From Candidatus Babeliales bacterium (GTDB lineage: Bacteria; Babelota; Babeliae; Babelales; JBFXEV01): DNA of 64,000 nucleotides. The stretch covers positions 969,994-1,033,993 of the forward strand of contig JBFXEV010000001.1 of assembly GCA_050179755.1 (NCBI GenBank), in the 5' to 3' direction. Within the stretch, counting starts at the first letter, position 1. Each line of letters opens with the position of its first letter. The notes below the pieces were generated by a model. It saw only the letters and a program-made list of their open reading frames with translations. It did not search any database and was not told where the DNA came from. A program made the translations under genes and the position numbers. Shown here in pieces: positions 7,718 to 48,825 of the stretch.

Positions 7718-8365
7718 ATGAATAATCAAGAAACAACACAACGTGACGGCAAGAAGTCTGAAAATCGTTATGGTCAAAACCGTGGTGGTGGTAAACCTGG
7801 CGCTGGACGCCCTGGTGCAAAAGGTTCAGACGACCAAAAGCCAGATGAAAAAGATAAACAACGCCGAGCACGTAAAGTGTCGGAATATGGTAAACAGCTT
7901 GAAGAAAAACAAAAAGTTAAACATTCATACGGTATGCGTGAAAAACAGTTCCGTAGATTTTTTGACTTAGCGTTTAGATCAGAAGCTGCAACAGGTGAAA
8001 AGCTATTAAGTTTGCTCGAGCGCCGCATTGATAACGTGTTATATCGTTTAAAATTTGCAGTAACACGTGCTCAAGCGCGTCAAGTTATTGTGCATGGGCA
8101 TGTTGCAATTAATGGCAGAAGAGTGTCATCTCCTTCCGCACTTGTTGGCGTGGGTGATACTATATCCTTCTTACCTCAAGTTGGTAAAAAACAGGCATTT
8201 GTAGAGCAAGTAATTGAAAAGCGCCTTAATATTGGTATTAAAGTCCCTGAGTGGCTTGAGTTGAATAAAGACGCACGCACTGGCAAAGTATTACGCGAGC
8301 CAGTACGTACTGATATTCAAAATCCAATTGAAGAGCATTTAATTGTTGAATTATATTCTAAGTAA
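7718..8365 (+). CDS. rpsD: 30S ribosomal protein S4 (atypical N-terminus)
   Basis: SEYGKQLEEKQK, LERRIDNVLYR, ARQVIVHGH, LIVELYSK. Confidence 0.96.
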   Translation: MNNQETTQRDGKKSENRYGQNRGGGKPGAGRPGAKGSDDQKPDEKDKQRRARKVSEYGKQLEEKQKVKHSYGMREKQFRRFFDLAFRSEAATGEKLLSLLERRIDNVLYRLKFAVTRAQARQVIVHGHVAINGRRVSSPSALVGVGDTISFLPQVGKKQAFVEQVIEKRLNIGIKVPEWLELNKDARTGKVLREPVRTDIQNPIEEHLIVELYSK

Positions 8366-9973: not shown

Positions 9974-10108
9974 GGTCTTTTCGTTTAAATATCTGGGCAG
10001 CAGGTTCGCCAACCTGAAGCAATGCTCTTATTAAAAATTGGACCAAATACCAATAAAAGAGTATTACCCCCCCCCGGCCCCTGTTAATAATACACATAGA
10101 AATTATTC

Positions 10109-10136
10109 TTGACAAAAATAACCCGATCTATAAACT
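10109..10136 (+). promoter_or_regulatory. Sigma70-type promoter for the secreted-protein cluster
   Basis: TTGACA-N16-TAAACT about 80 nt upstream of ATG 10215. Confidence 0.55.
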
Positions 10137-10214
10137 AATATTATACAGTTACGCAAAGCTGGTCTTTCCCTGTAAGACGGGGTAAAAGACTACAAACTGG
10201 GAGGTTACAAAACT

Positions 10215-10562
10215 ATGCGTATTTTAATTAATTCACTATTAAAATTAACGTTATTGGCACTCATTATATCTGTGGGCAGTGTTACTGCTATGGAATATGG
10301 GGATTTGCCTCAAAGTAATGCAGCGCCAACTATTGGCTCATGGGCATATGCTTTTATGCAGCCCTCAACTCCTGCAAAATCAGTAAAAGCAACAAATAAG
10401 GCACTGTATGCAGCTCCCGTAGCTGCTGCCGCGCCCGCATTATTATCTAAAAAAACTATGCTCATATTGGCAGGCGGATTGCTTACGCTATGGGCAGTTA
10501 AAAAAGTATACAATTGGATGTATAGTAAACCGAAGAATGGAGAAGTAACATGTTATCAATAA
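10215..10562 (+). CDS. Hypothetical exported protein with C-terminal hydrophobic helix
   Basis: GGAGG RBS; signal peptide ending VTA-ME; TM-like LILAGGLLTLWAV. Confidence 0.75.
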   Translation: MRILINSLLKLTLLALIISVGSVTAMEYGDLPQSNAAPTIGSWAYAFMQPSTPAKSVKATNKALYAAPVAAAAPALLSKKTMLILAGGLLTLWAVKKVYNWMYSKPKNGEVTCYQ

Positions 10563-11518
10563 AAAAACAATTATTAGTGCTCGCACTTACGGCAAGCGTT
10601 GCAGCACCAGTTTGCGCAATGGACCAGCAAGATTCATCAAGCTTGATCAATTGGAAAACCGGAGCAGTAGCTGCTACCGCGCTTGTTATAGGATTAGGCT
10701 GTGCTGCAAGATGGCTAACTTTTGGTACACCAGTAAAACAATTAGATACACTTGAGCAGTCAACTAAGGTTGCCGGTCAAGCAGATCAAGGCCAGGCTGC
10801 GCAACAACCTTTGCAAGAAGATAAATCGCAAGCACTTCAACAAGATAAAACTCAAGATGCACAAGCGCAAAAGCCGGTTCAAGATGTAGATGCTCAAAAT
10901 CAGCAGCCATCAGCAACGGCAATAAAGCGTCGCCCAGCGGGTCAAGCCGGCAGAAGGTTGCCTACAAGAAAGCCTGTAAAAACGCAGGATGAGCTTAATT
11001 TGGATGTAGAGGCTCCTGTTCAAGATGAACCAGCAGTTGAACCAAACGCAGCTCAACCAGCCGCTCCTGCGACCCAAAAACCTTTAAATGGAAAAGGTTA
11101 CGGAGTGAATCTTGGTGATCTTACAGCAACTAAATTAAAGAAAACAGTAAAAACTACCGCTACAGTTCCAGCAAAAGCTGCACAACCTAAGCCGCTTCCA
11201 CAAGTGCCAACGGCAAAAGAAGTGGTTGTTGAACAACCTACTGCAGATATGCTTGAACAATTTGCTCAAGAAATAGAGGATTTTAAAGCAATATCCCTTG
11301 CAAATCAAAAAAGCGAATTAGCAGCTACTGTGCAAGCATATGTTACACAACCAATACAAGATACTCAAAATCTTCTTAAAGTGTACGTGCAAATATATGG
11401 TGAGCGTGTAAAATCAAATGCGTTGGCCATTGCAATGACTAAGTTGTTTGCAACAAAAACGCCAGCACAAAGAAGTGCAGAATTCAATAACATTAAGCAA
11501 ATTCTTGGTGTGCGGTAA
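10550..11518 (+). CDS. Exported membrane-anchored effector-like protein with CPI-like and WH2-like motifs
   Basis: Signal peptide ending VCA-MD, TM segment, Q/P/A-rich linker, C-terminal helical domain shared with 12011-12610. Confidence 0.8.
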   Translation: MLSIKKQLLVLALTASVAAPVCAMDQQDSSSLINWKTGAVAATALVIGLGCAARWLTFGTPVKQLDTLEQSTKVAGQADQGQAAQQPLQEDKSQALQQDKTQDAQAQKPVQDVDAQNQQPSATAIKRRPAGQAGRRLPTRKPVKTQDELNLDVEAPVQDEPAVEPNAAQPAAPATQKPLNGKGYGVNLGDLTATKLKKTVKTTATVPAKAAQPKPLPQVPTAKEVVVEQPTADMLEQFAQEIEDFKAISLANQKSELAATVQAYVTQPIQDTQNLLKVYVQIYGERVKSNALAIAMTKLFATKTPAQRSAEFNNIKQILGVR

Positions 11519-11533
11519 CAGAGAAATATTGAG

Positions 11534-11565
11534 ACATGCCACTCGCTGAGAGTGGCATGTTTTTT
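11534..11565 (+). terminator. Intrinsic terminator
   Basis: acatgccact / agtggcatgt stem followed by a T run. Confidence 0.75.
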
Positions 11566-11589
11566 AATGACACAGAGGTTTATAACATT

Positions 11590-12009
11590 ATGCTTACTTC
11601 AATAATAAAAAAAATAGTAATGTTTGCTTTTATTATGGGGATTGTGGCTCCTATTACAGCAATGGATTCTCATCAAGATTCGCGCTGGTTTGGATGGAAG
11701 TCAGCAACAGGGGCTACCGCATTAGTGGTAGGTCTTGGAGCTTGGTGGTTGTATACTCATTGGAATAAGTCGGTATCAAAGCGAAATAGTACTACAAAAA
11801 GTACTCGTGCAGCAACAAAGCCATCAAAGCGCCAAGTTTCGCCCAACGCCAAAACTCAATCAGTCCAAGATTCCTCTCCTATGGTGACCACTGCGCAAGC
11901 GCCAATAATGGCATATGAAGATATAACAGATGAATATCTTGATAGAGAAATAGCTCAACTAGAACGTGAAATCGCTGAGGATAAAGCTAGAGAAAACAAA
12001 GGGAAATAA
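11590..12009 (+). CDS. Exported membrane-anchored protein, paralogue of its neighbours
   Basis: Start ATG 11590; ITA-MD signal end; WKSATGATALVVGLG matches neighbours. Confidence 0.78.
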   Translation: MLTSIIKKIVMFAFIMGIVAPITAMDSHQDSRWFGWKSATGATALVVGLGAWWLYTHWNKSVSKRNSTTKSTRAATKPSKRQVSPNAKTQSVQDSSPMVTTAQAPIMAYEDITDEYLDREIAQLEREIAEDKARENKGK

Positions 12010-12010
12010 C

Positions 12011-12610
12011 ATGGTATCACTATATAAAAAATTACTTATGTTTGCACTTATCGCAAGCATTGTCGCTCCTCTTTCTGCAATGGATTCACAAGAAACTACG
12101 TCATCTGGATTTGGATGGAAAGCTGGCTTAGGTTTAACTGCCGCCGTGGCAGGAACCGGGTTGGCAGCATATTTGGCTTATTCTTCGTGGAACAGGCCAG
12201 CAACTAAGCCTGTTGGATGTGTGCGCCAAAAGTCGTCAGTGCGTTGGGCTACGCCCACAGCAGCGGATATTGCTCAAATGGAACAAGAAGAGCGTGCAGC
12301 ACAGGATGCTGCATTACAAGAGTTAGAAGGGCAAGCTGCATCGCAAGAATCGATGATTCTAGAAGATTTTAGAAGCGCTAATGCCCAGACACAAAAGATA
12401 GAGATTGCAAAACAAGCATTTCAATATATTGATTCTCCAGAACAAGAAACTGAAGATCTGATAAGGCAGTATGTTCAAATCTATAGTCACCGATTAAAAT
12501 CACCAGATCTCGATATTGCAATGAATCGCTTATTTGCGGCAAAGGATAAAGCGGCAAAGACTATTGAATTAACCAAGATCAAGCAAATGCTTGGCTTAGT
12601 TTATTACTAA
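12011..12610 (+). CDS. Exported membrane-anchored protein, paralogue of 10550-11518
   Basis: Start ATG 12011; LSA-MD; shared EDF...YVQIY...IAM.RLFA...IKQ.LG domain. Confidence 0.8.
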   Translation: MVSLYKKLLMFALIASIVAPLSAMDSQETTSSGFGWKAGLGLTAAVAGTGLAAYLAYSSWNRPATKPVGCVRQKSSVRWATPTAADIAQMEQEERAAQDAALQELEGQAASQESMILEDFRSANAQTQKIEIAKQAFQYIDSPEQETEDLIRQYVQIYSHRLKSPDLDIAMNRLFAAKDKAAKTIELTKIKQMLGLVYY

Positions 12611-12630
12611 TTTAACGAGTATATAGTATT

Positions 12631-12666
12631 AAAAACGTGCCACTGGTCAAAAGGTGGCACGTTTTT
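12631..12666 (+). terminator. Intrinsic terminator (possibly bidirectional)
   Basis: aaaaacgtgccac / gtggcacgttttt inverted repeat. Confidence 0.75.
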
Positions 12667-12765
12667 ATTTTATACTATTACAAATAGAAAAGCTTGTGTG
12701 GTATGCTAAAAGTAGAATGAGCTGTTCTGTTGCTCTTAGATGGAAACATTAATGATGGAGGTAGT

Positions 12766-13286: not shown

Positions 13287-16004
13287 CTAGCCCTGTTCAA
13301 GAATTGTAACAGTGCTTCCTTGTGGTCCTTTATCCACTATAAAGTGAACCGGAAACTGTTCTTTCATGCTGGGCAAATGAGAAACAATAATAATTTTACA
13401 AAAGTTATCTTGAATAGCATAAATGGCCTCCATAAGTCTATGGAGGCCTTCATCATCCTGAGAGCCAAACCCTTCGTCAATAATAAGTGTTTGGAGTGAA
13501 GTTCCCGCTCTTCGTGCAAGCAGCTTTGATATGGCAATGCGTAATGCAAAATCAATGCGGAACGCTTCACCGCCAGAAAACATTTCATAGGGGCGAATGC
13601 CTTGCGTATCAGAAATATTAATATCAAGTGTTTCCTTGGCGCCACCCTTTTTAAGGTCTTTGAGTGATTCAATCATAATATGCGCTTGATTGTCCGTGAG
13701 TGCACCAAGTAATGCATTGGTTTCCTGCTCTATTTCGGGAATAGTTTCTTCTATTAAAAGCGCTTGTATGCCATCTTTGCCAAGAGCCGTGGCAATGGCG
13801 CCATATTCAAAAGAACCTGCATCAAGCATGGTAATACGTTTTTGCTCTTCCTCAAGTTCTTTGGCCATCAACTCAAGCTGCTTGCGTTCGTGTTCTAGGC
13901 TGCCTTGTTCTCGCGAGAGCGATTCTTTTTCTTTTTGGAGGGTAGTGAAGGCCGCTAATAATTCTTTTTCGTCCACGGTCAATTTTTGCATGCTTTCTAG
14001 AGCAGGTTGTAATTGCTTACACTGTTCACTCACTTCTTTTAATTGCCTTTTGATTGTTTTGAGTGAAGCAAATAAAGCAAGGCATGCTTGCTTACGATCA
14101 GTTTGTTCTTTGCGCGCTTGTTCAAGTGATGCATATTGGAGTAACTTTGTTTCAATTTCTTCAATGTTTTTTTTATCACGTTGATGCTGCTCGGCATTAT
14201 ACCCCAATTCTTTACTTTTAATTTCAAGCTTATCAAGTTGTTGGGTAATGAGTTGTAATGGTTGGTGTTCAGAGAGCATTTTCTCTTGGGTAGTCGTGAG
14301 CTCTTTAAGTTGTGCATATGTTTTAGTGAGCGCAGCGTTAATTGCTGAAAGTTCTTTGGCAAGCAGTGCGTGTTGCTTTTCATTCTCTTGGGTGAGTTTT
14401 AATAATGCTTCATGTTCTTTTTGTATATGGCATATATGTACACGTTGTCGCTCGAGTTCGTGCGCCAGTTTTTGTGCTTCTTCAAAGTGAGCATGTTCTG
14501 CCAAGAGGGTTTGTTTGAGCGGTGTAAGTATTGTTTTAAGGCGGTGCAAACGCGCGCTAATAAACTGTTCGCGGTGCATAAGCTTGGTATGAATAAAACG
14601 TTTTCTACTGAGCGATAAGTTTTGCTCACACAGTGGGCAGCTTGGATCATCTTGTTCAAGGGATAATTGTTTTTTTTGGGTTAAATCAGTTTGCTCTTTA
14701 ATGAGCTGTTGTGCCTGTGCCACCCACGCATGATAATAATTTTTTTTCTTTTCAAAGCGTGGGCGCAATTTTTCTTGCGCAGCAATGCTTTTTTCAAGTC
14801 GTTCAAGGTCTATTTTGCCTTGCGTAATCTCTTTGAGCGTGTGTGCGATATGTTTGTTAGTTTGTTCTTGCGTTGCAGTAAGTATCGCTAATTTAGTGCT
14901 TGTTTCTTTAACGAGCATCTCTTGGTGTGCTGCATTAAGCTGCTGTGTGTGTAGCTCTTTATCATGCTGAACTTTTAACTGTTGTAGCACTAGAGCAAAC
15001 TGCTCTTTTAGTTGTAACGTTTGCTCTTTAAAGCCAAGTTGTTTCTCAAGCGCTGTTTGGTGCTGCGCAATGGCGGCATTCATGAGAGTGCGCTTTGCTT
15101 CAAGCTCGTTTTTCTGCGAACCTGTATGTTGGGCACTATGCACTCTATGCCATTGTTGCCATAGTGCGTTGAGTTGTTCTTCTTCGCGCGATTTTCTAAG
15201 AAGTAATTCTTCTTCTTGTTTTAAGAGAATATTGCGCTGTTCTATTTTTGCGGTGAGTTCTTGCTTGGTTTGCGCAATTTTTTTTTGTGTAAGTTCGTAG
15301 TGTTCTGTTGTTGTTGAGAGAACTTGCAGTCTATCGCCAACAACTTGTGCAAGAGCGATGACTTCGTTTAAACGTTCAAGTTGTACTTTAACTTTTTGGC
15401 TGTGTTCAACACTATATTTTTTTTGATTGCCAAGATCTTTTGCTTTATACAGTGCACGTTGCTTGAGTGCTTCAAACTGATTAAGGCCTAAAATTGCAGA
15501 CAATATTTGTTTGCGCTCTTTGGCCGACTTTTTAGAAAATTCATTTGAGCTGCCTTGCCGTAAAAAGGCTGAATTAATAAACGTGTCATAATCAAGGCCA
15601 ATGGTAGCGATTATTTTTTCTTGGGTAGCCCTAATGGTTTTATCGGTTAATGCGCGTATAGTTTTTGAAGATGTGTCGTAGATGCCAAAATCAAGAGATG
15701 CATAGGGCTTTGCATATGTTTTTGCATATTCTCGTTTAATGCGATATGTATGCGTATTGAATTCGAACTCAAAAATTACCGTCATGAAGGTCTGGCCAAT
15801 GCGCAATAGATTATCGTCTGGCTTACTTGCGCCCGCGGTCTTGCGCGCTTGCCCCCATATTGCCCATGTCATGGCATCAAGCAGTGCTGATTTACCATGG
15901 CCATTTTTGCCGCTTAAACAAATAAGCGGATAGCCTGCAAATTCAATTATTTGCCGCTTGCCGTAACTTAAAAAATTTTCTATTTCAAGTCGTATGGGTA
16001 TCAT
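13287..16004 (-). CDS. sbcC: SbcC/Rad50-family SMC ATPase
   Basis: Walker A GKNGHGKS, Q-loop FLRQG, zinc hook CPLC, signature FSGGE, Walker B LIIDEGFG, long coiled coils. Confidence 0.92.
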   Translation of the reverse strand: MIPIRLEIENFLSYGKRQIIEFAGYPLICLSGKNGHGKSALLDAMTWAIWGQARKTAGASKPDDNLLRIGQTFMTVIFEFEFNTHTYRIKREYAKTYAKPYASLDFGIYDTSSKTIRALTDKTIRATQEKIIATIGLDYDTFINSAFLRQGSSNEFSKKSAKERKQILSAILGLNQFEALKQRALYKAKDLGNQKKYSVEHSQKVKVQLERLNEVIALAQVVGDRLQVLSTTTEHYELTQKKIAQTKQELTAKIEQRNILLKQEEELLLRKSREEEQLNALWQQWHRVHSAQHTGSQKNELEAKRTLMNAAIAQHQTALEKQLGFKEQTLQLKEQFALVLQQLKVQHDKELHTQQLNAAHQEMLVKETSTKLAILTATQEQTNKHIAHTLKEITQGKIDLERLEKSIAAQEKLRPRFEKKKNYYHAWVAQAQQLIKEQTDLTQKKQLSLEQDDPSCPLCEQNLSLSRKRFIHTKLMHREQFISARLHRLKTILTPLKQTLLAEHAHFEEAQKLAHELERQRVHICHIQKEHEALLKLTQENEKQHALLAKELSAINAALTKTYAQLKELTTTQEKMLSEHQPLQLITQQLDKLEIKSKELGYNAEQHQRDKKNIEEIETKLLQYASLEQARKEQTDRKQACLALFASLKTIKRQLKEVSEQCKQLQPALESMQKLTVDEKELLAAFTTLQKEKESLSREQGSLEHERKQLELMAKELEEEQKRITMLDAGSFEYGAIATALGKDGIQALLIEETIPEIEQETNALLGALTDNQAHIMIESLKDLKKGGAKETLDINISDTQGIRPYEMFSGGEAFRIDFALRIAISKLLARRAGTSLQTLIIDEGFGSQDDEGLHRLMEAIYAIQDNFCKIIIVSHLPSMKEQFPVHFIVDKGPQGSTVTILEQG

Positions 16005-20198: not shown

Positions 20199-20275
20199 GG
20201 GCCCATAGCTCAGTCGGTTAGAGCAATCGGCTCATAACCGAGAGGTCCCAGGTTCGAGTCCTGGTGGGCCCACCA
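20199..20275 (+). tRNA. tRNA with CAT anticodon, likely tRNA-Ile2 (lysidine)
   Basis: Cloverleaf GGGCCCA...TGGGCCC-ACCA, loop CTCATAA; acceptor stem is Ile-like. Confidence 0.9.
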
Positions 20276-20302
20276 TTCACTACAAAATAAGGGGTGTACA
20301 GC

Positions 20303-21037
20303 ATGAATGTTCAGCCAGTAGAAAAAGGTGTTTTCGTGAACGAGTCCCCATTGCAAAAGCTCATTGAGCTTGTGAAGTTTGACCAAAAAATCTTAGTTCT
20401 TGAGCATTCGCTCAATTCTCTTGAAAACGAAGTTGCTCAGCATGAGCAAGAAATTTCCCAGATTCAGCATCATCTTGACGTTGCAAAGCAGCATATGCGT
20501 GCAACACGTAAAATTGTTGATGAAAAAGAGCTACGTATGAAAGAGCTTGATCAGATGGAAAAAGACGCCAAAAAGCGTTTAGAGCTCGTGCAGGGTCAAC
20601 GGGAATATGAGTCGGGCATGAAGCAGATTAAGTCGATTCAGAAAGAACAACAAGATTTTGAAGAGCAATTGCTTGAAAGCTGGAAACAGTTTGAGCATGC
20701 ACAAGCGCAATATACTGATAAGTTGCAATTTGTGAATGATAAAACAAAAGAACTGAACGATTTAGTGAGTTCACAATCTATAAAAATAGAAGAATTAAAA
20801 AAAGAAATTGCACTACAAAGCAAAGATAGGCCAGTTATGGAGCTGTCTATTCCCGAAGATTTGATTGCAAAGTACCAGGTGATGCGCAAACGCGTGAAAG
20901 ATCCGGTAGTGCCATTAGAGCATGGTAGTTGCAGTGCTTGTTTTTATCATGTTTTGCAGCAAGATCTTATATCTATCCAACGTGGCGCGCTTAAGCAGTG
21001 CCATAATTGCTTTAGATTTCTCTATTATCCAAAATAA
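20303..21037 (+). CDS. Coiled-coil protein with C4 zinc ribbon (DUF164/CT398-like)
   Basis: Long coiled coil then CSACF...CHNCFRFLY; start uncertain (20294, 20303 or 20337). Confidence 0.85.
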   Translation: MNVQPVEKGVFVNESPLQKLIELVKFDQKILVLEHSLNSLENEVAQHEQEISQIQHHLDVAKQHMRATRKIVDEKELRMKELDQMEKDAKKRLELVQGQREYESGMKQIKSIQKEQQDFEEQLLESWKQFEHAQAQYTDKLQFVNDKTKELNDLVSSQSIKIEELKKEIALQSKDRPVMELSIPEDLIAKYQVMRKRVKDPVVPLEHGSCSACFYHVLQQDLISIQRGALKQCHNCFRFLYYPK

Positions 21038-32989: not shown

Positions 32990-33066
32990 GGCGACGTAGC
33001 TCAGTTGGTTAGAGCGGCGGAATCATAATCCGAAGGTCAGAGGTTCGAATCCCCTCGTCGCTACCA
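32990..33066 (+). tRNA. tRNA-Met (CAT), elongator type
   Basis: GGCGACG...CGTCGCT-ACCA, loop ATCATAA; lacks initiator features. Confidence 0.88.
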
Positions 33067-33195: not shown

Positions 33196-33801
33196 ATGCA
33201 AAAAAATACTATCCTCTCTCTCCCTCTCACACTCACTGGCATCCGCCTTATCATAGCACCCTTACTTTTACCATTTTTAGTAGTATATCTTTTGCCGCTT
33301 AATCTACTGTGGCTTAATTGCCTTATTGGCGTGTTATTTTTTGCGTTTGGGCTGACCGATTTTTTTGATGGGTATTATGCGCGTAAAAATAATCAAGTTA
33401 CTTTACTTGGCGCGTTGCTTGACCCTATAGCAGATAAGTTTTTGAATCTATCAACATTGCTTGGTTTATTGGTGGTGCATAAAATTTCATTCTTTTGGGT
33501 AATGCTTTTTATTGCACGGGAGTTGTTTGTAATGAGCTTGCGGCTTATTGCAGCAGAACATGGCAAGAGTATTTCGGTATCTTGGCATGGTAAATTAAAA
33601 ACAACCGCGCAATTTGTGTATATTACGGTAGCAATCTGCAATCCACTGGCAAGTTCTTATACTACATTTACCCGCATTGAAGAGATTTTATTATGTATCG
33701 CAGTAGTTTCTACGTTGCTCTCAGCATATGCGTATTATCGCTCATTTATTGCGATATTCCCCGATATACTGTATCGAAAGTCGCACGACACCACTTTGTA
33801 A
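33196..33801 (+). CDS. pgsA: CDP-diacylglycerol--glycerol-3-phosphate 3-phosphatidyltransferase
   Basis: TDFFDGYYARK...GALLDPIADK, GKLKT. Confidence 0.92.
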   Translation: MQKNTILSLPLTLTGIRLIIAPLLLPFLVVYLLPLNLLWLNCLIGVLFFAFGLTDFFDGYYARKNNQVTLLGALLDPIADKFLNLSTLLGLLVVHKISFFWVMLFIARELFVMSLRLIAAEHGKSISVSWHGKLKTTAQFVYITVAICNPLASSYTTFTRIEEILLCIAVVSTLLSAYAYYRSFIAIFPDILYRKSHDTTL

Positions 33802-33812
33802 AGGTTAAGAGT

Positions 33813-35585
33813 ATGAATTTTAGTACCGTTGCCTATTATTTTGATGCAATAAATAACACCAGTTCGCGTACTGAGATCACGCAGCTTCTTGCCACACTTT
33901 TTAAAGCAGCAAATGCGCAAGAAATTGAAATTATTTGTAACGCATCATTAGGGCTTTTACGTCCGCCATATCGTGGCACGCAATTTAACGTGGCTGAAAA
34001 AAGCATGATCGGTATTGTGGCGCAATTGCTTGGCATTTCACCAGAAGAGGTGAAGACTCGCGCGAATGACCTTGGGGATCTTGGCTCAGTAGTTGCCCAA
34101 GGGTATGCTGCGCAAACGGCATCTGAACTTTCAGTAGTAGATGTGTATGCTGCGTTGAGCGAAATTGAAGATATCTCAGGCAGTGGTAGTACTGAACTTA
34201 AAGCGCACAAAATAGTGAGTTTGTTGCAGCAACTTTCGCCAGCAAGTGGTCAATACGTTGTACGTATCATTTTAGGCACCTTGCGCCTTGGTTTTTCTGA
34301 TATGACTATTGTGGATGCACTTTCTTGGATGCTTGTGGAAAGTAAAGCGTTAAGAGCGCGTATTGAACACGCGTATAATTTGTGCGCTGATATTGGCTTT
34401 ATTGCACGAGAGCTTAAAAGCGGCGGCATAGAAGCACTTGATAAATTATCTATAAAAATTGGTATACCCATTCGGCCTGCAGCAGCAGAGCGTTTGCCTA
34501 ATGCTCAAGCAATTATTGATAAAATTGGTGATTGCGTGGCGCAACCTAAACTTGATGGCTTTCGTTTGCAAATTCATATGGATGCAACACATTCTGAGCA
34601 GCCCGAGATTCATTTTTTTTCGCGCAATTTGCTTGATATGTCAGCTATGTTTCCTGATTTAGTAGAGGCACTTAAAAAGTTACCGGTCAAACAACTCATT
34701 TGTGAAGGTGAAGCAATAGTTTTTGATCCAAATACGGGTCACTTTTTACCGTTTCAAGAAACAGTCAAACGCAAACGCAAACATGGTATTGACCAGGCAA
34801 TCTCTGAATTTCCCTTGCAATTTTATGTGTTTGATTTGTTGTATGCCGATGGCAAAGAGTATTTATCAGTAGGTCATGAAGAGCGTAGAAAAGCATTACT
34901 TGCATTATTTGCGCAGTCAAAAACTGCTACTATTCAGGTAATTGCAGAGCGGCACGTGCATACGGCAGCTGAGCTAGAAGAATATTTTTTTGAAAACATT
35001 AACGCAGGGCTTGAAGGCCTGGTGGTCAAGAAACCAAATTCAATCTATGAACCTGGTAAACGTAATTTTAATTGGATCAAATTAAAACGCCATGAAGAAG
35101 GCCATTTAGAAGATACCATCGATTGTGTGATATTGGGTTATTATGCTGGTGCTGGCAAACGATCTCAATTTGGCATTGGTGCATTTTTGGTTGGCATATT
35201 TAACCCGCACGAAGATTGTTTTCAAACCATTGCAAAGATTGGCACGGGTCTTAAAGATGCCGAGTGGATAGATCTAAAAAAACAATGTGATGCACATGCG
35301 GTGCATGAAAAGCCGCGTAACGTGGTGTGCGCTCCAGCATTATACCCCGACGTGTGGACTGCCCCTGAAATTGTGTGCAGCATTCTTGCTGATGAAATTA
35401 CGCGATCGCCGCTCCATACTGCTGGTAAAACTACTGAGCAACTGGGGTATGCATTGCGTTTCCCGCGTATACTTGGCTATCGAGAAGATAAGTCTGCGCA
35501 TGAGGTGACTACCGTGCATGAGATTAAGCGGCTTTATGAAGATCAGTTTGTTCCTTCGATACATTCTTCTGCGCCGAAGGCTTGA
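33813..35585 (+). CDS. ATP-dependent DNA ligase, archaeal/eukaryotic LigI-like with N-terminal DNA-binding domain
   Basis: KLDGFR, EGEA, FDLLY, EGLVVK, WIKLK, LRFPR; GDLGSV and LRLG in the DBD; start moved to ATG 33813. Confidence 0.93.
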   Translation: MNFSTVAYYFDAINNTSSRTEITQLLATLFKAANAQEIEIICNASLGLLRPPYRGTQFNVAEKSMIGIVAQLLGISPEEVKTRANDLGDLGSVVAQGYAAQTASELSVVDVYAALSEIEDISGSGSTELKAHKIVSLLQQLSPASGQYVVRIILGTLRLGFSDMTIVDALSWMLVESKALRARIEHAYNLCADIGFIARELKSGGIEALDKLSIKIGIPIRPAAAERLPNAQAIIDKIGDCVAQPKLDGFRLQIHMDATHSEQPEIHFFSRNLLDMSAMFPDLVEALKKLPVKQLICEGEAIVFDPNTGHFLPFQETVKRKRKHGIDQAISEFPLQFYVFDLLYADGKEYLSVGHEERRKALLALFAQSKTATIQVIAERHVHTAAELEEYFFENINAGLEGLVVKKPNSIYEPGKRNFNWIKLKRHEEGHLEDTIDCVILGYYAGAGKRSQFGIGAFLVGIFNPHEDCFQTIAKIGTGLKDAEWIDLKKQCDAHAVHEKPRNVVCAPALYPDVWTAPEIVCSILADEITRSPLHTAGKTTEQLGYALRFPRILGYREDKSAHEVTTVHEIKRLYEDQFVPSIHSSAPKA

Positions 35586-47359: not shown

Positions 47360-47767
47360 TTAATAAATATCCGGAAAATGTGATTTTTCTTGAAACGCCG
47401 TTTGAAGCATAATAAAAACTTTTTCTGCGTCAGTAAGCACAACCACATTCTTTCCCATTTTTCTACTGGTTTTTATATCTAGCGCTGTGGTATGCCGTGC
47501 TGCCTCGTAACGGTGCGTAATTTTATTATCCTCAACGATTGGTTGACTCATAGCAGTTATGGTAGATCCTTTGGCAACTTCTGCTTGATAAAAAGTACGA
47601 TTAGCAATTGTCCACGTAGTGACATCTTTAATATATTCAATGCCTGTTTGTGCGGGATTAGCTTGCGCAGCATTCGATTGTGGGTCCATAGCGAGCAGGT
47701 GGCTGCTTGAAATAATACTTGCTATAAAAAGAAGATATGTAGATAATGTGAAAAAATGTTGTAGCAT
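47360..47767 (-). CDS. Small exported protein (array member)
   Basis: LLA-MD signal end; C-terminal helix AEKVFIMLQTAFQ. Confidence 0.75.
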   Translation of the reverse strand: MLQHFFTLSTYLLFIASIISSSHLLAMDPQSNAAQANPAQTGIEYIKDVTTWTIANRTFYQAEVAKGSTITAMSQPIVEDNKITHRYEAARHTTALDIKTSRKMGKNVVVLTDAEKVFIMLQTAFQEKSHFPDIY

Positions 47768-48108
47768 TAGGTACCCTTTTGTTGCGCACTTTTGGCTGCT
47801 TCTTGCAGCTCATATGCATGTTTAACTTGATTATAAATTGTTTCTAAGCGTTCTTGCTCTATAGCAATTGTCGCATTATTACCTGTTTTTTCAAATGCAC
47901 GAATGTCCTTGAGTTCCGTGTCATAAAACACTGTGTACAATTTTAAACCATCTTTAGAAGGTCCTCTATATATGGGTTTTGTTTCAGTACCCCATTTAAC
48001 ATAGAGTTCTTTGTTAGCAGGGCCAGTTTTTTCCATTGCAAAGCTTGTAGCATTTTGAAGTCCAATCAAAAAAGTAATGGTGAGCGTATTGATAGTATTT
48101 TTTAGCAT
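47767..48108 (-). CDS. Small exported protein (array member)
   Basis: SFA-ME; LETIYNQVKHAYELQ; TAATG coupling to the next gene. Confidence 0.75.
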   Translation of the reverse strand: MLKNTINTLTITFLIGLQNATSFAMEKTGPANKELYVKWGTETKPIYRGPSKDGLKLYTVFYDTELKDIRAFEKTGNNATIAIEQERLETIYNQVKHAYELQEAAKSAQQKGT

Positions 48109-48137
48109 TATTGAGCTTTCTCTAGTAAAATCGCTAT

Positions 48138-48461
48138 TTATTTTGGTGTTGTGTTGTTATTCATTGCTTGTTGGGTTGTATGTTTATTTTTAAGCAGAGT
48201 AAAAAGTTCTTCAGCGCCAACTAAAGTTATTACTCTTGGCTGACCATCATGACTTGTTTCTTCTCCAGCAAAATAGATTTGCCTTTCTTTATGATACTGT
48301 GCGTATATAACATGGTTAGGATTTACAGCTGAATAATAGGCTAGAACTGTCTTGCAATCAAATGTATATACTTTAGCATTCTCCATTGCCAATGTATGGT
48401 TGCCTGAAATAATACTGACTGCAAGAAGAATAAAGTTAAAAGCTATAAGTTTTTTTAACAT
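48138..48461 (-). CDS. Small exported protein (array member)
   Basis: Start ATG 48461; TLA-ME; AEELFTLLKNKHTTQQ. Confidence 0.75.
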   Translation of the reverse strand: MLKKLIAFNFILLAVSIISGNHTLAMENAKVYTFDCKTVLAYYSAVNPNHVIYAQYHKERQIYFAGEETSHDGQPRVITLVGAEELFTLLKNKHTTQQAMNNNTTPK

Positions 48462-48480
48462 TGTATTGATTTTTCTTTGA

Positions 48481-48825
48481 TTATTTTTCAGAAACATTAT
48501 CGCCATGACTAATCACTAATGATTTGCGTTGTAACATATAAGCAAGTTTTAATTGTTCAAATTTCTTCTTTGCAGCGCTCTCGGGGTATTCTGTTTCTAA
48601 TATATCACCATCTGCGCATACACCGCGATAGGTGGCGCAATATTTGCCGGTTGCCTTATTGAATGAAGCTACTTCAGAATCTCTTTGATCGGTAGTTGGG
48701 CCTGTGTATGTTTCAATTTGTTTGTCGGCATCAAAAGTAAACGTGTGCATTGCATGCGCAGAATGTATCATGATAATGCTCATGATGAGTGCTGCATAGC
48801 TTACATGTTGTTTAATTTTTTTCAT
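48481..48825 (-). CDS. Small exported protein (array member)
   Basis: AHA-MH; FNKATGKYCA; AKKKFEQLKLAYMLQ. Confidence 0.75.
   Translation of the reverse strand: MKKIKQHVSYAALIMSIIMIHSAHAMHTFTFDADKQIETYTGPTTDQRDSEVASFNKATGKYCATYRGVCADGDILETEYPESAAKKKFEQLKLAYMLQRKSLVISHGDNVSEK

Follow-up and report, generated by a model that had tools for sequence, protein, structure and literature searches.

The window analysed here is a 64-kb stretch of DNA (64,000 nt) from a Babeliales/Dependentiae (TM6) bacterium, a member of an obligately host-associated lineage. Its RpoA is 94% identical to that of a Candidatus Babeliales MAG chromosome (L001) and 59-70% identical to those of the other 79 loci compared, whose titles are mostly Babeliales, Dependentiae or TM6. 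In the excerpts of the literature used here, the phylum Dependentiae is described as made up of parasites of protists, many of whose proteins are exported via Sec signal peptides (PMC6561590); in C. destructans, such peptides are found on 44% of the CDS, putative effectors included (PMC6561590). The same excerpts describe a type II secretion system conserved across Dependentiae and no type III or type IV system (PMC6561590, PMC4776705), and they state the roles of the ankyrin-repeat proteins of C. destructans as unknown (PMC6561590). The window also encodes an ankyrin-repeat protein, of 1289 aa.

Just downstream of the ribosomal genes rpsD-rpoA-rplQ lies a cluster of four tandem paralogues, all on the + strand. 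Gene 1 (10215..10562) encodes a 115-aa protein that begins like a signal peptide (..GSVTA|ME) and has a hydrophobic segment at its C-terminal end, and its 3' end overlaps the start of gene 2 by 13 nt. Gene 2 (10550..11518) encodes P0001, the 322-aa protein that carries both motifs considered below. Gene 3 (11536..12009) is a 157-aa ORF, or 139 aa (P0015) when read from the M at 11590, in which the N-terminal module is followed by a basic linker and by a short tail that is charged and helix-like. Gene 4 (11966..12610; 214-aa ORF, with a 190-aa form, P0002) combines the N-terminal module with a short linker devoid of conserved islands and a C-terminal domain. The cluster is preceded by a sigma-70-like promoter match (10109..10136, + strand; TTGACA-16-TAAACT, 10/12), which is a consensus match only, the region having 11 such matches where shuffled sequence has 8.4 +/- 2.7, and the four-gene unit is closed by a terminator-like hairpin (12630..12667, + strand; 15-bp stem, 6 G-C pairs, T-run). 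In L001, the closest relative, the cluster lies between rplQ and sbcC, and the counterpart of gene 1 is a 116-aa ORF at 14463-14813 of that locus. Despite the presence of the cluster, no orthologue of P0001 was found in L001, so that P0001 is dispensable at the genus scale. Searches of Pfam and NCBIfam with five cluster proteins returned nothing over the curated cut-offs, and P0001 was assigned to no family.

Architecture of P0001 and its family

P0001 is composed of a signal-peptide-like start, a weakly hydrophobic Gly/Ala-rich segment, a disordered linker of ~175 aa and a six-helix C-terminal bundle. Judged by its sequence, the first segment (aa 1-23, 10550..10618, + strand) resembles a signal peptide: a basic n-region (K5 K6), a hydrophobic core (aa 7-19) and a small residue at -1, with ..APVCA followed by MD. 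An alignment of 11 N-terminal modules shows no variation at P20, A23 or M24 and hardly any at D25. The cleavage-site region of P0001 (V21-C22-A23, then M24-D25) contains a cysteine, and we considered a lipoprotein; this reading was rejected because the cysteine before A|MD is not conserved, other modules having ..ISA, ..LSA or ..VKA. The second hydrophobic segment (aa 37-58, 10658..10723, + strand) is Gly/Ala-rich and marginal, with a Kyte-Doolittle mean of about 1.6-1.8 and a net positive flank after it.

The linker (aa 59-234, 10724..11251, + strand) is rich in Q, A, P and K. In the AlphaFold2 model of P0001, pLDDT is 38-54 over aa 30-210 and no secondary structure is present between aa 48 and 231. 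The C-terminal domain (aa 235-322, 11252..11515, + strand) is conserved and compact, and is 44% identical to that of the paralogue at 11966-12610. AlphaFold2 confidently predicts it to be a six-helix bundle (mean pLDDT 93.4, pTM 0.83), and the model matches no known fold among those searched: Foldseek returned no significant neighbour, the best hits being generic helical bundles at E 0.85 in the PDB and 0.49 in BFVD. The ESM Atlas yielded no usable feature match for the C-terminal domain or the LKKT region, and its structure rows were uninformative.

Only 21 family members were found among billions of proteins. A homology search with the whole of P0001 retrieved the query as the sole match above threshold among 8000 scored candidates, probably because the low-complexity linker crowded the candidates, and a first scan of genome contigs with a two-sequence alignment of the C-terminal domain gave 165 pattern matches, none of which was confirmed. 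The N-terminal module of the family consists of a signal peptide, A|M-D/E, W-x-W-K and the weakly hydrophobic Gly/Ala-rich segment, and the C-terminal bundle (~85 aa, six helices) is present in most members. Four proteins (P0008, P0011, P0013 and P0014) carry the C-terminal domain behind a plain signal peptide together with 6-12 cysteines and without a second hydrophobic segment, and two of these (P0011 and P0014) contain CPCNKPKPKP repeats. In the L001 protein P0019, the N-terminal module is fused to a GH1 glycosidase (PF00232). The long linker is found in three of the 21 proteins: P0001, P0012, which comes from an 8-kb contig, and P0005, whose sequence starts inside the motif region. Linker conservation is thus measured on three sequences.

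Conserved islands in the disordered linker

The earlier note had singled out two peptides in the linker of the ORF at 10550-11518, and both were found in its translation, within the region of low pLDDT: TAIKRRPAGQAGRRLPTRK at aa 123-141 (nt 10916-10972) and VNLGDLTATKLKKTV at aa 186-200 (nt 11105-11149). The interval 10915-11152 that it gave for them precedes the T123 codon by one base, so that as written it translates in the wrong frame, and it ends 3 nt beyond V200.

Comparison with P0012 resolves the linker into three islands. Island 1 (aa 128-142, RPAGQAGRRLPTRKP; 10931..10975, + strand) is the basic Arg/Pro sequence RP-x5-RRxPxRK that had been called CPI-like. Island 2 (aa 183-199, GYGVNLGDLTATKLKKT; 11096..11146, + strand) is the thymosin-beta/WH2-like element, in which L188 and L191 stand at -8 and -5 from L196-K-K-T. 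It shares 11/17 residues with P0012 and 8/13 with P0005. Island 3 (aa 214-220, KPLPQVP; 11189..11209, + strand) is identical to P0012 at six of seven positions and to P0005 at five of seven; P0012 has a second KPLPxxP copy upstream of its LKKT. Island 3 fits the class-I SH3-ligand pattern [RK]xxPxxP. Between islands 1 and 2 lies an acidic DELNLD (aa 147-152, 10988..11005, + strand), which is also found in the lineage of the 139/136-aa paralogues (P0016, P0017).

P0001 and P0012 are identical at 25/39 island positions; for linker positions outside the islands the figure is 28/119, and for the folded C-terminal domain 25/87. The local alignment of the two linkers scored 147, against 56.9 +/- 9.2 for shuffled sequences, and none of 1000 shuffles reached it. 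Taken separately, the WH2-like half scored 90 against 31.2 +/- 5.7 (0/1000) and the CPI-like half 73 against 47.4 +/- 8.2 (7/1000), the latter being modest support. The LKKT island is kept in all three long-linker proteins (three of the 21 family members), and no other stretch of the linker is as well conserved. The CPI-like island has 8/15 residues identical in P0012 and is present in two of the 21 family proteins; the P0005 sequence begins beyond this region and so does not include it.

We then estimated how often such motifs occur in a background of 502,952 residues, made up of 2179 ORF segments (each 120 aa or longer) that were taken from the window and from 80 Babeliales loci. The spaced pattern [ILVMF]xx[ILVMF]xxxxLKK[TV] matched 3 times and bare LKK[TV] 69 times; RP-x5-RRxPxR and KPLPxxP each matched once, in P0001; and [RK]xxPxxP was common, with 124 matches. 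An ELM-style WH2 expression matched 1243 times and was rejected as a test, since definitions this loose carry no information. With 3 background matches, one spaced LKKT pattern in a 64-kb window is unremarkable by itself, and it is the conservation in homologues that raises the motif above chance.

Likeness to actin- and capping-protein-binding motifs

WH2 motifs are recognised by an LKK(T/V) that comes after a short segment able to form a helix (PMC7407642), here taken as 9-10 residues that become an amphipathic helix on actin. The LKK(T/V) element of WH2 and thymosin-beta is present as L196-K-K-T199 in all three long-linker proteins, where L188, D190, L191, T194 and L196-K197-K198-T199 are invariant. 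Like thymosin-beta, P0001 has the LKKT inside a disordered region and after hydrophobic residues at -8 and -5, which reproduces the I9/F12/L17 spacing of the thymosin-beta4 peptide (PMC5669175). Thymosin-beta4 and the three long-linker proteins also have a PLP element downstream of LKKT, at differing distances. In contrast, M6 of thymosin-beta4, at -11, corresponds to a Gly in P0001, and the third hydrophobic position is missing. WIP uses three hydrophobic helix positions, L36, L37 and I40 (PMC7407642); the P0001 segment offers only two and includes G189, and AlphaFold2 predicted no helix at aa 186-195 of the free protein. P0001 further differs from thymosin-beta/WH2 sequences in having no evident second C-terminal helix. 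At E <= 10, none of four motif peptides matched a Pfam family, WH2 and Thymosin included (HMMER filters may hide very weak matches), and neither the WH2-like peptide nor a three-sequence WH2-like profile matched any PDB sequence. The WH2-like reading of the LKKT segment is therefore partly supported by its sequence: the LKKT, its spacing and its conservation in three of three proteins speak for it, but the family match is lacking.

The claim of a capping-protein-interaction motif fared less well. The excerpts of PMC10381072 give the CPI consensus as LxHxTxxRPK(6x)P, of 17 residues. P0001 agrees with it at two of the seven defined positions (R8 and P9, that is R128-P129) and P0012 at three, since its RPK adds K10. 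Positions 1, 3 and 5 are S121, T123 and I125 in P0001 and Q, L and R in P0012, which bears out the absence of LxH already conceded in the earlier note, L1 and H3 being both missing from P0001. Position 10 is an alanine in P0001, and the distal proline of both proteins (P138 in P0001) is at position 18, one residue out of register with position 17. The canonical pattern L.H.T..RPK.{6}P had no match in the 502,952-residue background and none in P0001, and the CPI-like peptide matched no PDB sequence at E <= 10. The RRxP that had been presented as an extension of the consensus does not appear in the literature on CPI motifs cited here.

The residue at position 10 appears to matter in known CPI proteins: capping-protein binding is lost or weakened in the R73A/K75A double mutant of MavH, according to the excerpts of PMC10381072, and in twinfilin K325A (PMC6249002). 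The family is said to tolerate significant divergence, as in the twinfilin tail (PMC6249002). As far as the excerpted descriptions go, CARMIL, CD2AP, CKIP-1, FAM21/WASHCAP, CapZIP and the twinfilin tail (PMC6249002, PMC10381072) share with P0001 an Arg-Pro core followed by a basic/proline element, placed in an extended disordered segment beside a membrane-targeting element; unlike them, P0001 lacks L1, H3, T5 and K10 and has its distal proline shifted by one. By the published 17-residue consensus P0001 is outside the CPI family, and the supposed capping-protein motif appears to be only a weak look-alike.

Among bacterial effectors, the closest analogue of P0001 is MavH (Lpg2425) of Legionella pneumophila, in which, according to the excerpts of PMC10381072, a CPI motif occurs together with a WH2-like element and a domain that targets membranes. 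On that description, P0001 resembles MavH, which comes from an amoeba-adapted intracellular bacterium, in having one WH2-like element, a motif of the Arg/Pro/Lys capping-protein type that lies in disordered sequence, and a membrane element apart from these; actin assembly by MavH depends on its being tethered to a membrane. P0001 does not have the domain order of MavH, which runs from WH2-like element to CPI motif to C-terminal PI(3)P domain; in P0001 an N-terminal anchor is followed by the basic motif, the LKKT and the helical bundle. MavH matches the CPI consensus and P0001 does not, whereas P0001 has a canonical LKKT and the MavH element is defined by the hydrophobic helix residues V24 and L31. 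The export routes differ as well, MavH being secreted by a type IV system whereas P0001 has what looks like a Sec-type signal peptide. No sequence relationship between the two emerged from the Pfam and NCBIfam searches, in which P0001 had no match.

WH2 mimicry in disordered regions is also described, in the excerpts of PMC10381072 and PMC13481308, for VopL/VopF (Vibrio), TARP (Chlamydia), BimA (Burkholderia) and RavH (Legionella), often close to sequence rich in proline and to a domain that oligomerises or binds membranes. These effectors have WH2 motifs in tandem or oligomerise through defined domains, and they are secreted by type III, IV or V systems; P0001, in contrast, belongs to an unrelated family, with a single copy of the motif, a putative Sec signal and a hydrophobic tether. 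The N-terminal modules of the family, in which two hydrophobic segments are parted by an acidic/Ser loop of 13-17 aa, might be likened to chlamydial Inc proteins (two adjacent hydrophobic helices, a short loop and type III secretion); the first of the two segments resembles a cleavable Sec signal.

Possible roles of P0001

A conserved LKKT motif in the disordered linker of a protein from a protist-dependent bacterium makes it plausible that P0001 is a host-cytoskeleton effector, a candidate that would be small, fast-evolving and membrane-tethered. The explanation that we tentatively prefer, while granting it somewhat less than an even chance, is that P0001 is a lineage-specific, Sec-exported, membrane-tethered host-interaction protein whose linker is a string of eukaryote-type short linear motifs, within a tiny, tandem and rapidly diversifying family whose N-terminal module is portable. 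P0001 would then be anchored in a membrane exposed to the host cytosol, where the LKKT motif would bind host actin monomers, the KPLPxxP motif would recruit a partner of the SH3 or profilin type, and the basic patch would attach to an acidic surface, such as that of phosphoinositides, actin or perhaps capping protein. Jointly, these motifs would alter local actin assembly, in much the way that MavH acts on PI(3)P membranes. The sequences, the architecture, the disorder of the linker, the conserved islands and the taxon are observed, whereas export, exposure to the host and each of the binding steps are inferred. In favour of this explanation are the taxon with its Sec and type II export, the ankyrin-repeat protein in the window, the conservation of the islands and the spacing of the LKKT, the C-terminal domains behind plain signal peptides, the GH1 fusion of the N-terminal module and the precedent of MavH. 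Against it count the missing Pfam and PDB matches of the motif peptides, the lack of a predicted helix before the LKKT, the two hydrophobic positions where WIP uses three, the poor fit to the CPI consensus, a topology that may leave the linker in the cytoplasm, the absence of a P0001 orthologue from L001 and the derivation of the conservation from three sequences, with P0005 partial.

The topology of P0001 is ambiguous from its sequence, and it is possible, though rather unlikely, that P0001 is instead an inner-membrane protein acting inside the bacterium. In this case, a cleaved signal peptide would be followed by a stop-transfer anchor (N-out, C-in), the linker and bundle would be cytoplasmic, the islands would bind a bacterial partner and the WH2/CPI likeness would be coincidental. 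Among the 12 N-terminal modules listed, the Kyte-Doolittle mean of the second segment is 1.25-1.84 in 11 (0.94 in P0019) and the flank C-terminal to it is net positive in nine; were this segment a stop-transfer anchor after a signal peptide, the positive-inside rule would therefore place the linker in the bacterial cytoplasm. The missing WH2 and Thymosin matches, the ribosomal genes just upstream and the fact that no type III or IV secretion is described for Dependentiae in the excerpts cited agree with such a role. However, the second segment is only marginally hydrophobic, with a summed insertion cost of +1.5 to +5.6, and the same N-terminal module carries a GH1 glycosidase. The C-terminal domains that follow plain signal peptides in cysteine-containing proteins with no anchor point to an extracytoplasmic domain, and eukaryote-style motifs in a long disordered linker would presumably be unusual for a bacterial cytoplasmic protein.

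Alternatively, P0001 might be directed at the host but at targets other than actin, which we judge unlikely. The basic island would then be nuclear-localisation-like or a phosphoinositide patch, KPLPxxP an SH3 ligand, and LKKT a ligand of some other host protein. Consistent with this, island 1 is part of a +8 basic cluster (net charge over aa 123-145), and in P0012 it forms two basic clusters ~10 residues apart, which resembles a bipartite nuclear-localisation signal; moreover, [RK]xxPxxP and the ELM-style WH2 expression are both frequent in the background. Against it, all three of the long-linker proteins keep an exact LKKT at the thymosin-type spacing, a combination that is rare in the background, and such a motif is not known to have another partner.

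The full model of the earlier note, in which functional CPI and WH2 motifs recruit capping protein as well as G-actin at the vacuole or the bacterial surface, would make P0001 a true counterpart of MavH and is very unlikely: R128-P129 and the distal RRxP have identical spacing in P0001 and P0012, P0012 carries RPK, the CPI family is said to tolerate divergence and the two motifs do occur together in a bacterial protein, MavH, in the excerpts cited, but the few consensus positions, the shifted proline, the alanine in place of a needed lysine, the modest shuffle support and the lack of the region in P0005 argue against it.

Returning to the host-interaction protein that we prefer, a short, conserved and mutation-testable motif would provide a direct biochemical handle on host manipulation by widespread protist parasites. 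Among the papers used here, none describes a Dependentiae effector whose function has been worked out, and our searches of the literature found no paper linking Dependentiae to WH2 motifs. If LKKT binds actin, WH2/thymosin mimicry would have arisen independently in a phylum reliant on Sec and type II secretion, and the logic of MavH, in which a single WH2 motif is tethered to a membrane, would have a second example in P0001. In a bolder form, which we regard as a long shot, P0001 would be the first Dependentiae actin-assembly factor, exported by Sec and type II secretion, held in the host membrane by its weak Gly/Ala anchor and combining G-actin, SH3/profilin and shifted but functional CPI motifs, with the N-terminal module as a new portable export-and-anchor signal that brings helical-bundle, coiled-coil and GH1 cargo to host membranes; if this were true, P0001 would be a convergent analogue of MavH. 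Finally, the occurrence of the N-terminal module on several different cargo domains suggests that it may mark a whole class of exported proteins of this clade.

P0001, its gene cluster and its family

P0001 is encoded by an uninterrupted 322-aa ORF (window 10550-11518, +). Its gene is number two in a run of four that share an orientation (10215-12610); rpsD, rpoA and rplQ lie on the 5' side and sbcC, on the opposite strand, on the 3' side. The protein database places P0001 on a contig of 1,526,461 bp. The cluster is preceded by a promoter-like site (10109-10136) and followed by a strong terminator-like hairpin (12630-12667). Genes 2-4 have an N-terminal module in common, and genes 2 and 4 a C-terminal domain (44% identity). 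Compared with 0.06-0.18 in the adjoining 2-kb bins, GC skew drops to 0.001 at window 10001-12000 and AT skew climbs to 0.183, a shift consistent with the abundance of A-rich codons for Gln, Lys and Ala in this linker-rich cluster.

The protein begins with a stretch resembling a signal peptide (K5 K6, a hydrophobic core, ..APVCA and then MD). A 13-aa acidic/Ser loop with W-K at its end comes next, then a second, Gly/Ala-rich segment of only marginal hydrophobicity (aa 37-58), and lastly a linker (aa 59-234) with the C-domain (aa 235-322). In an AlphaFold2 model built from a 10-sequence family alignment, aa 48-231 have pLDDT values of 38-54 and adopt no secondary structure, and the earlier description of the linker as disordered is fair. 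The C-domain was predicted as six helices (mean pLDDT 93.4, pTM 0.83), for which Foldseek returned no significant structural neighbour (best E 0.85 in the PDB and 0.49 in BFVD). Named relatives of the family, the N-module or the C-domain were not found in Pfam, NCBIfam, Foldseek or the ESM Atlas.

The family has very few members. When the C-domain profile was run exhaustively against 1.84 billion representatives, it identified 14 proteins (E <= 0.001), P0001 and the paralogue from the window among them, and an N-module search based on an 11-sequence alignment found 12 among longer proteins; combined, the searches yielded 21 family proteins. Scanning genome contigs with the window's RpoA gave 80 loci, the best of which (L001, 94% identity) lies on a 1.865-Mb Candidatus Babeliales MAG chromosome; the others are 59-70% identical and mostly titled Babeliales, Dependentiae or TM6. 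When both module profiles were run on six-frame ORF segments (9731, taken from the window plus the 80 Babeliales loci), hits came from the window and L001 only. The rplQ-sbcC interval of L001 carries a different set of module-bearing genes (283, 511, 116, 139 and 188 aa) and no P0001 orthologue, which indicates that the cluster turns over quickly and that the N-module is portable. The 511-aa product (P0019, L001:12708-14243, +) has the N-module, with its signal peptide, A|ME, W..W and Gly/Ala segment, fused to a GH1 glycosidase domain (PF00232), which suggests that this module is a transferable device for export or anchoring.

Conserved islands in the linker

Long linkers occur in three of the 21 family proteins: P0001, P0012 (344 aa) and P0005 (130 aa), whose sequence begins within the motif region. 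In their alignment the linker is poorly conserved except at three islands: island 1 (RP-x5-RRxPxRK) in P0001 and P0012, and islands 2 (GxGVxLxDLxxTxLKKT) and 3 (KPLPxxP) in all three proteins, with an extra upstream copy of island 3 in P0012. The earlier note had singled out a capping-protein-interaction (CPI)-like and a WH2-like peptide; both are present, at aa 123-141 (nt 10916-10972) and aa 186-200 (nt 11105-11149), although its start coordinate was off frame by one base. It had also proposed conservation in homologues as a check, which held for island 2 in 3/3 long-linker proteins and for island 1 in the two whose sequence covers it.

Between P0001 and P0012, 25/39 positions are identical in the islands, 28/119 in the rest of the linker and 25/87 in the folded C-domain. 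Local-alignment scores were compared with 1000 shuffles each. None reached the observed score for the whole linker (147; shuffled 56.9 +/- 9.2), for the LKKT half (90; 31.2 +/- 5.7) or for the LKKT half of P0001 against the P0005 N-terminus (80; 27.1 +/- 5.2); seven did for the basic half (73; 47.4 +/- 8.2). Among Babeliales ORF segments totalling 502,952 residues, [ILVMF]xx[ILVMF]xxxxLKK[TV] matched three times, and RP-x5-RRxPxR and KPLPxxP once each, in P0001.

Island 2 is a credible thymosin/WH2-like motif, judging from its sequence. The hallmark of these motifs is LKK(T/V) after a 9-10-residue helix-forming segment (PMC7407642). LKKT is unchanged in all three proteins, and the invariant L188 and L191 precede its leucine by 8 and 5 residues, just as I9 and F12 precede L17 in thymosin-beta4 (peptide in PMC5669175). 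However, the island has two hydrophobic positions only, its peptide matched no Pfam family at E <= 10 and, by sequence, no PDB chain, and the unbound AlphaFold2 model contains no helix there.

The CPI assignment of island 1 fared worse. Relative to the consensus LxHxTxxRPK(6x)P, as given in PMC10381072, P0001 keeps only R8 and P9, and P0012 R8, P9 and K10; L1, H3 and T5 are missing from both, and the distal proline comes one residue late in both. In Legionella MavH, an actin effector, the same paper reports that the R73A/K75A double mutant, K10 included, abolishes capping-protein recruitment, and in twinfilin K325A (the K10 equivalent) weakens competition for capping protein ~30-fold (PMC6249002). 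By the published consensus, island 1 falls outside the CPI family. This family is reported to tolerate divergence (PMC6249002), so island 1 may still serve a capping-protein function. It forms a basic patch (+8), directly after which comes an acidic stretch (-7) including DELNLD (window 10988-11005). DELNLD recurs in the 139/136-aa paralogue lineage (P0016, P0017), upstream of a short charged helix.

Possible function and membrane topology

Our best reading, held at somewhat less than even confidence, is that P0001 is a host-interaction protein that Sec would export and a membrane would tether, with a linker that would mimic eukaryotic short linear motifs and an LKKT island that would bind G-actin as its central activity. 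We infer each of these functional steps. Going by its published description, the closest functional analogue is MavH; no homology was detected through Pfam/NCBIfam. Dependentiae are described as parasites that rely on protist hosts (PMC4776705, PMC6561590); they possess Sec, and a type II secretion system is conserved among them (PMC4776705). In C. destructans, 44% of CDS carry signal peptides, putative effectors among them, and cells seem to release outer-membrane vesicles (PMC6561590). WH2 mimicry by intracellular bacteria is already well known (PMC10381072); our literature search found no paper tying Dependentiae to WH2 or actin-targeting proteins.

The main weakness of the host-facing reading is membrane topology. 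If the second hydrophobic segment halts transfer, the linker would remain in the bacterial cytoplasm and P0001 would be an intrabacterial inner-membrane protein. We consider this main rival unlikely, though to be taken seriously: the segment is only marginally hydrophobic, the same N-module is fused to GH1, and C-domains are found elsewhere behind a signal peptide alone. The distant relatives P0008, P0011, P0013 and P0014 carry one or two C-domain copies after a plain signal peptide; they contain 6-12 cysteines and lack a second hydrophobic segment, and P0011 and P0014 also repeat a CPCNKPKPKP motif. This layout argues for a C-domain probably acting outside the bacterial cytoplasm. A host-directed P0001 with targets other than actin is rather less probable. 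The full model of the earlier note, with recruitment of both capping protein and actin, is improbable.

Other features of the window

A 1289-aa ankyrin-repeat protein (53930-57799, +) is likely a further host-interaction protein; its matches to models of Legionella Dot/Icm ankyrin effectors were weak and stayed below threshold (46-58 bits, where the cut-offs are 600 or more). A 247-aa zinc-ribbon protein (20294-21037, +) weakly matched the chlamydial regulator CdsZ (30.7 bits, cut-off 275). At Rfam's gathering threshold, the window yielded nothing beyond three tRNA genes (+; 20199-20272, 32990-33063 and 63941-64000, the last clipped by the window end). Ribosomal protein S4 (7718-8365, +) begins with a ~38-aa Gly/Lys/Asp-rich stretch, and S4 models align from residue 39-41. 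Two ORF runs on the minus strand without an NCBIfam family (47360-48825, 113-135 aa; 58940-61610, 117-585 aa) may encode further lineage-specific proteins. Finally, the ~1.5-Mb genome carries both a non-homologous end-joining pair of Ku and a LigD-type ligase domain (49461-51295, +) and, apart from it, a dnl1-type ATP-dependent DNA ligase of 630 aa (33693-35585, +).
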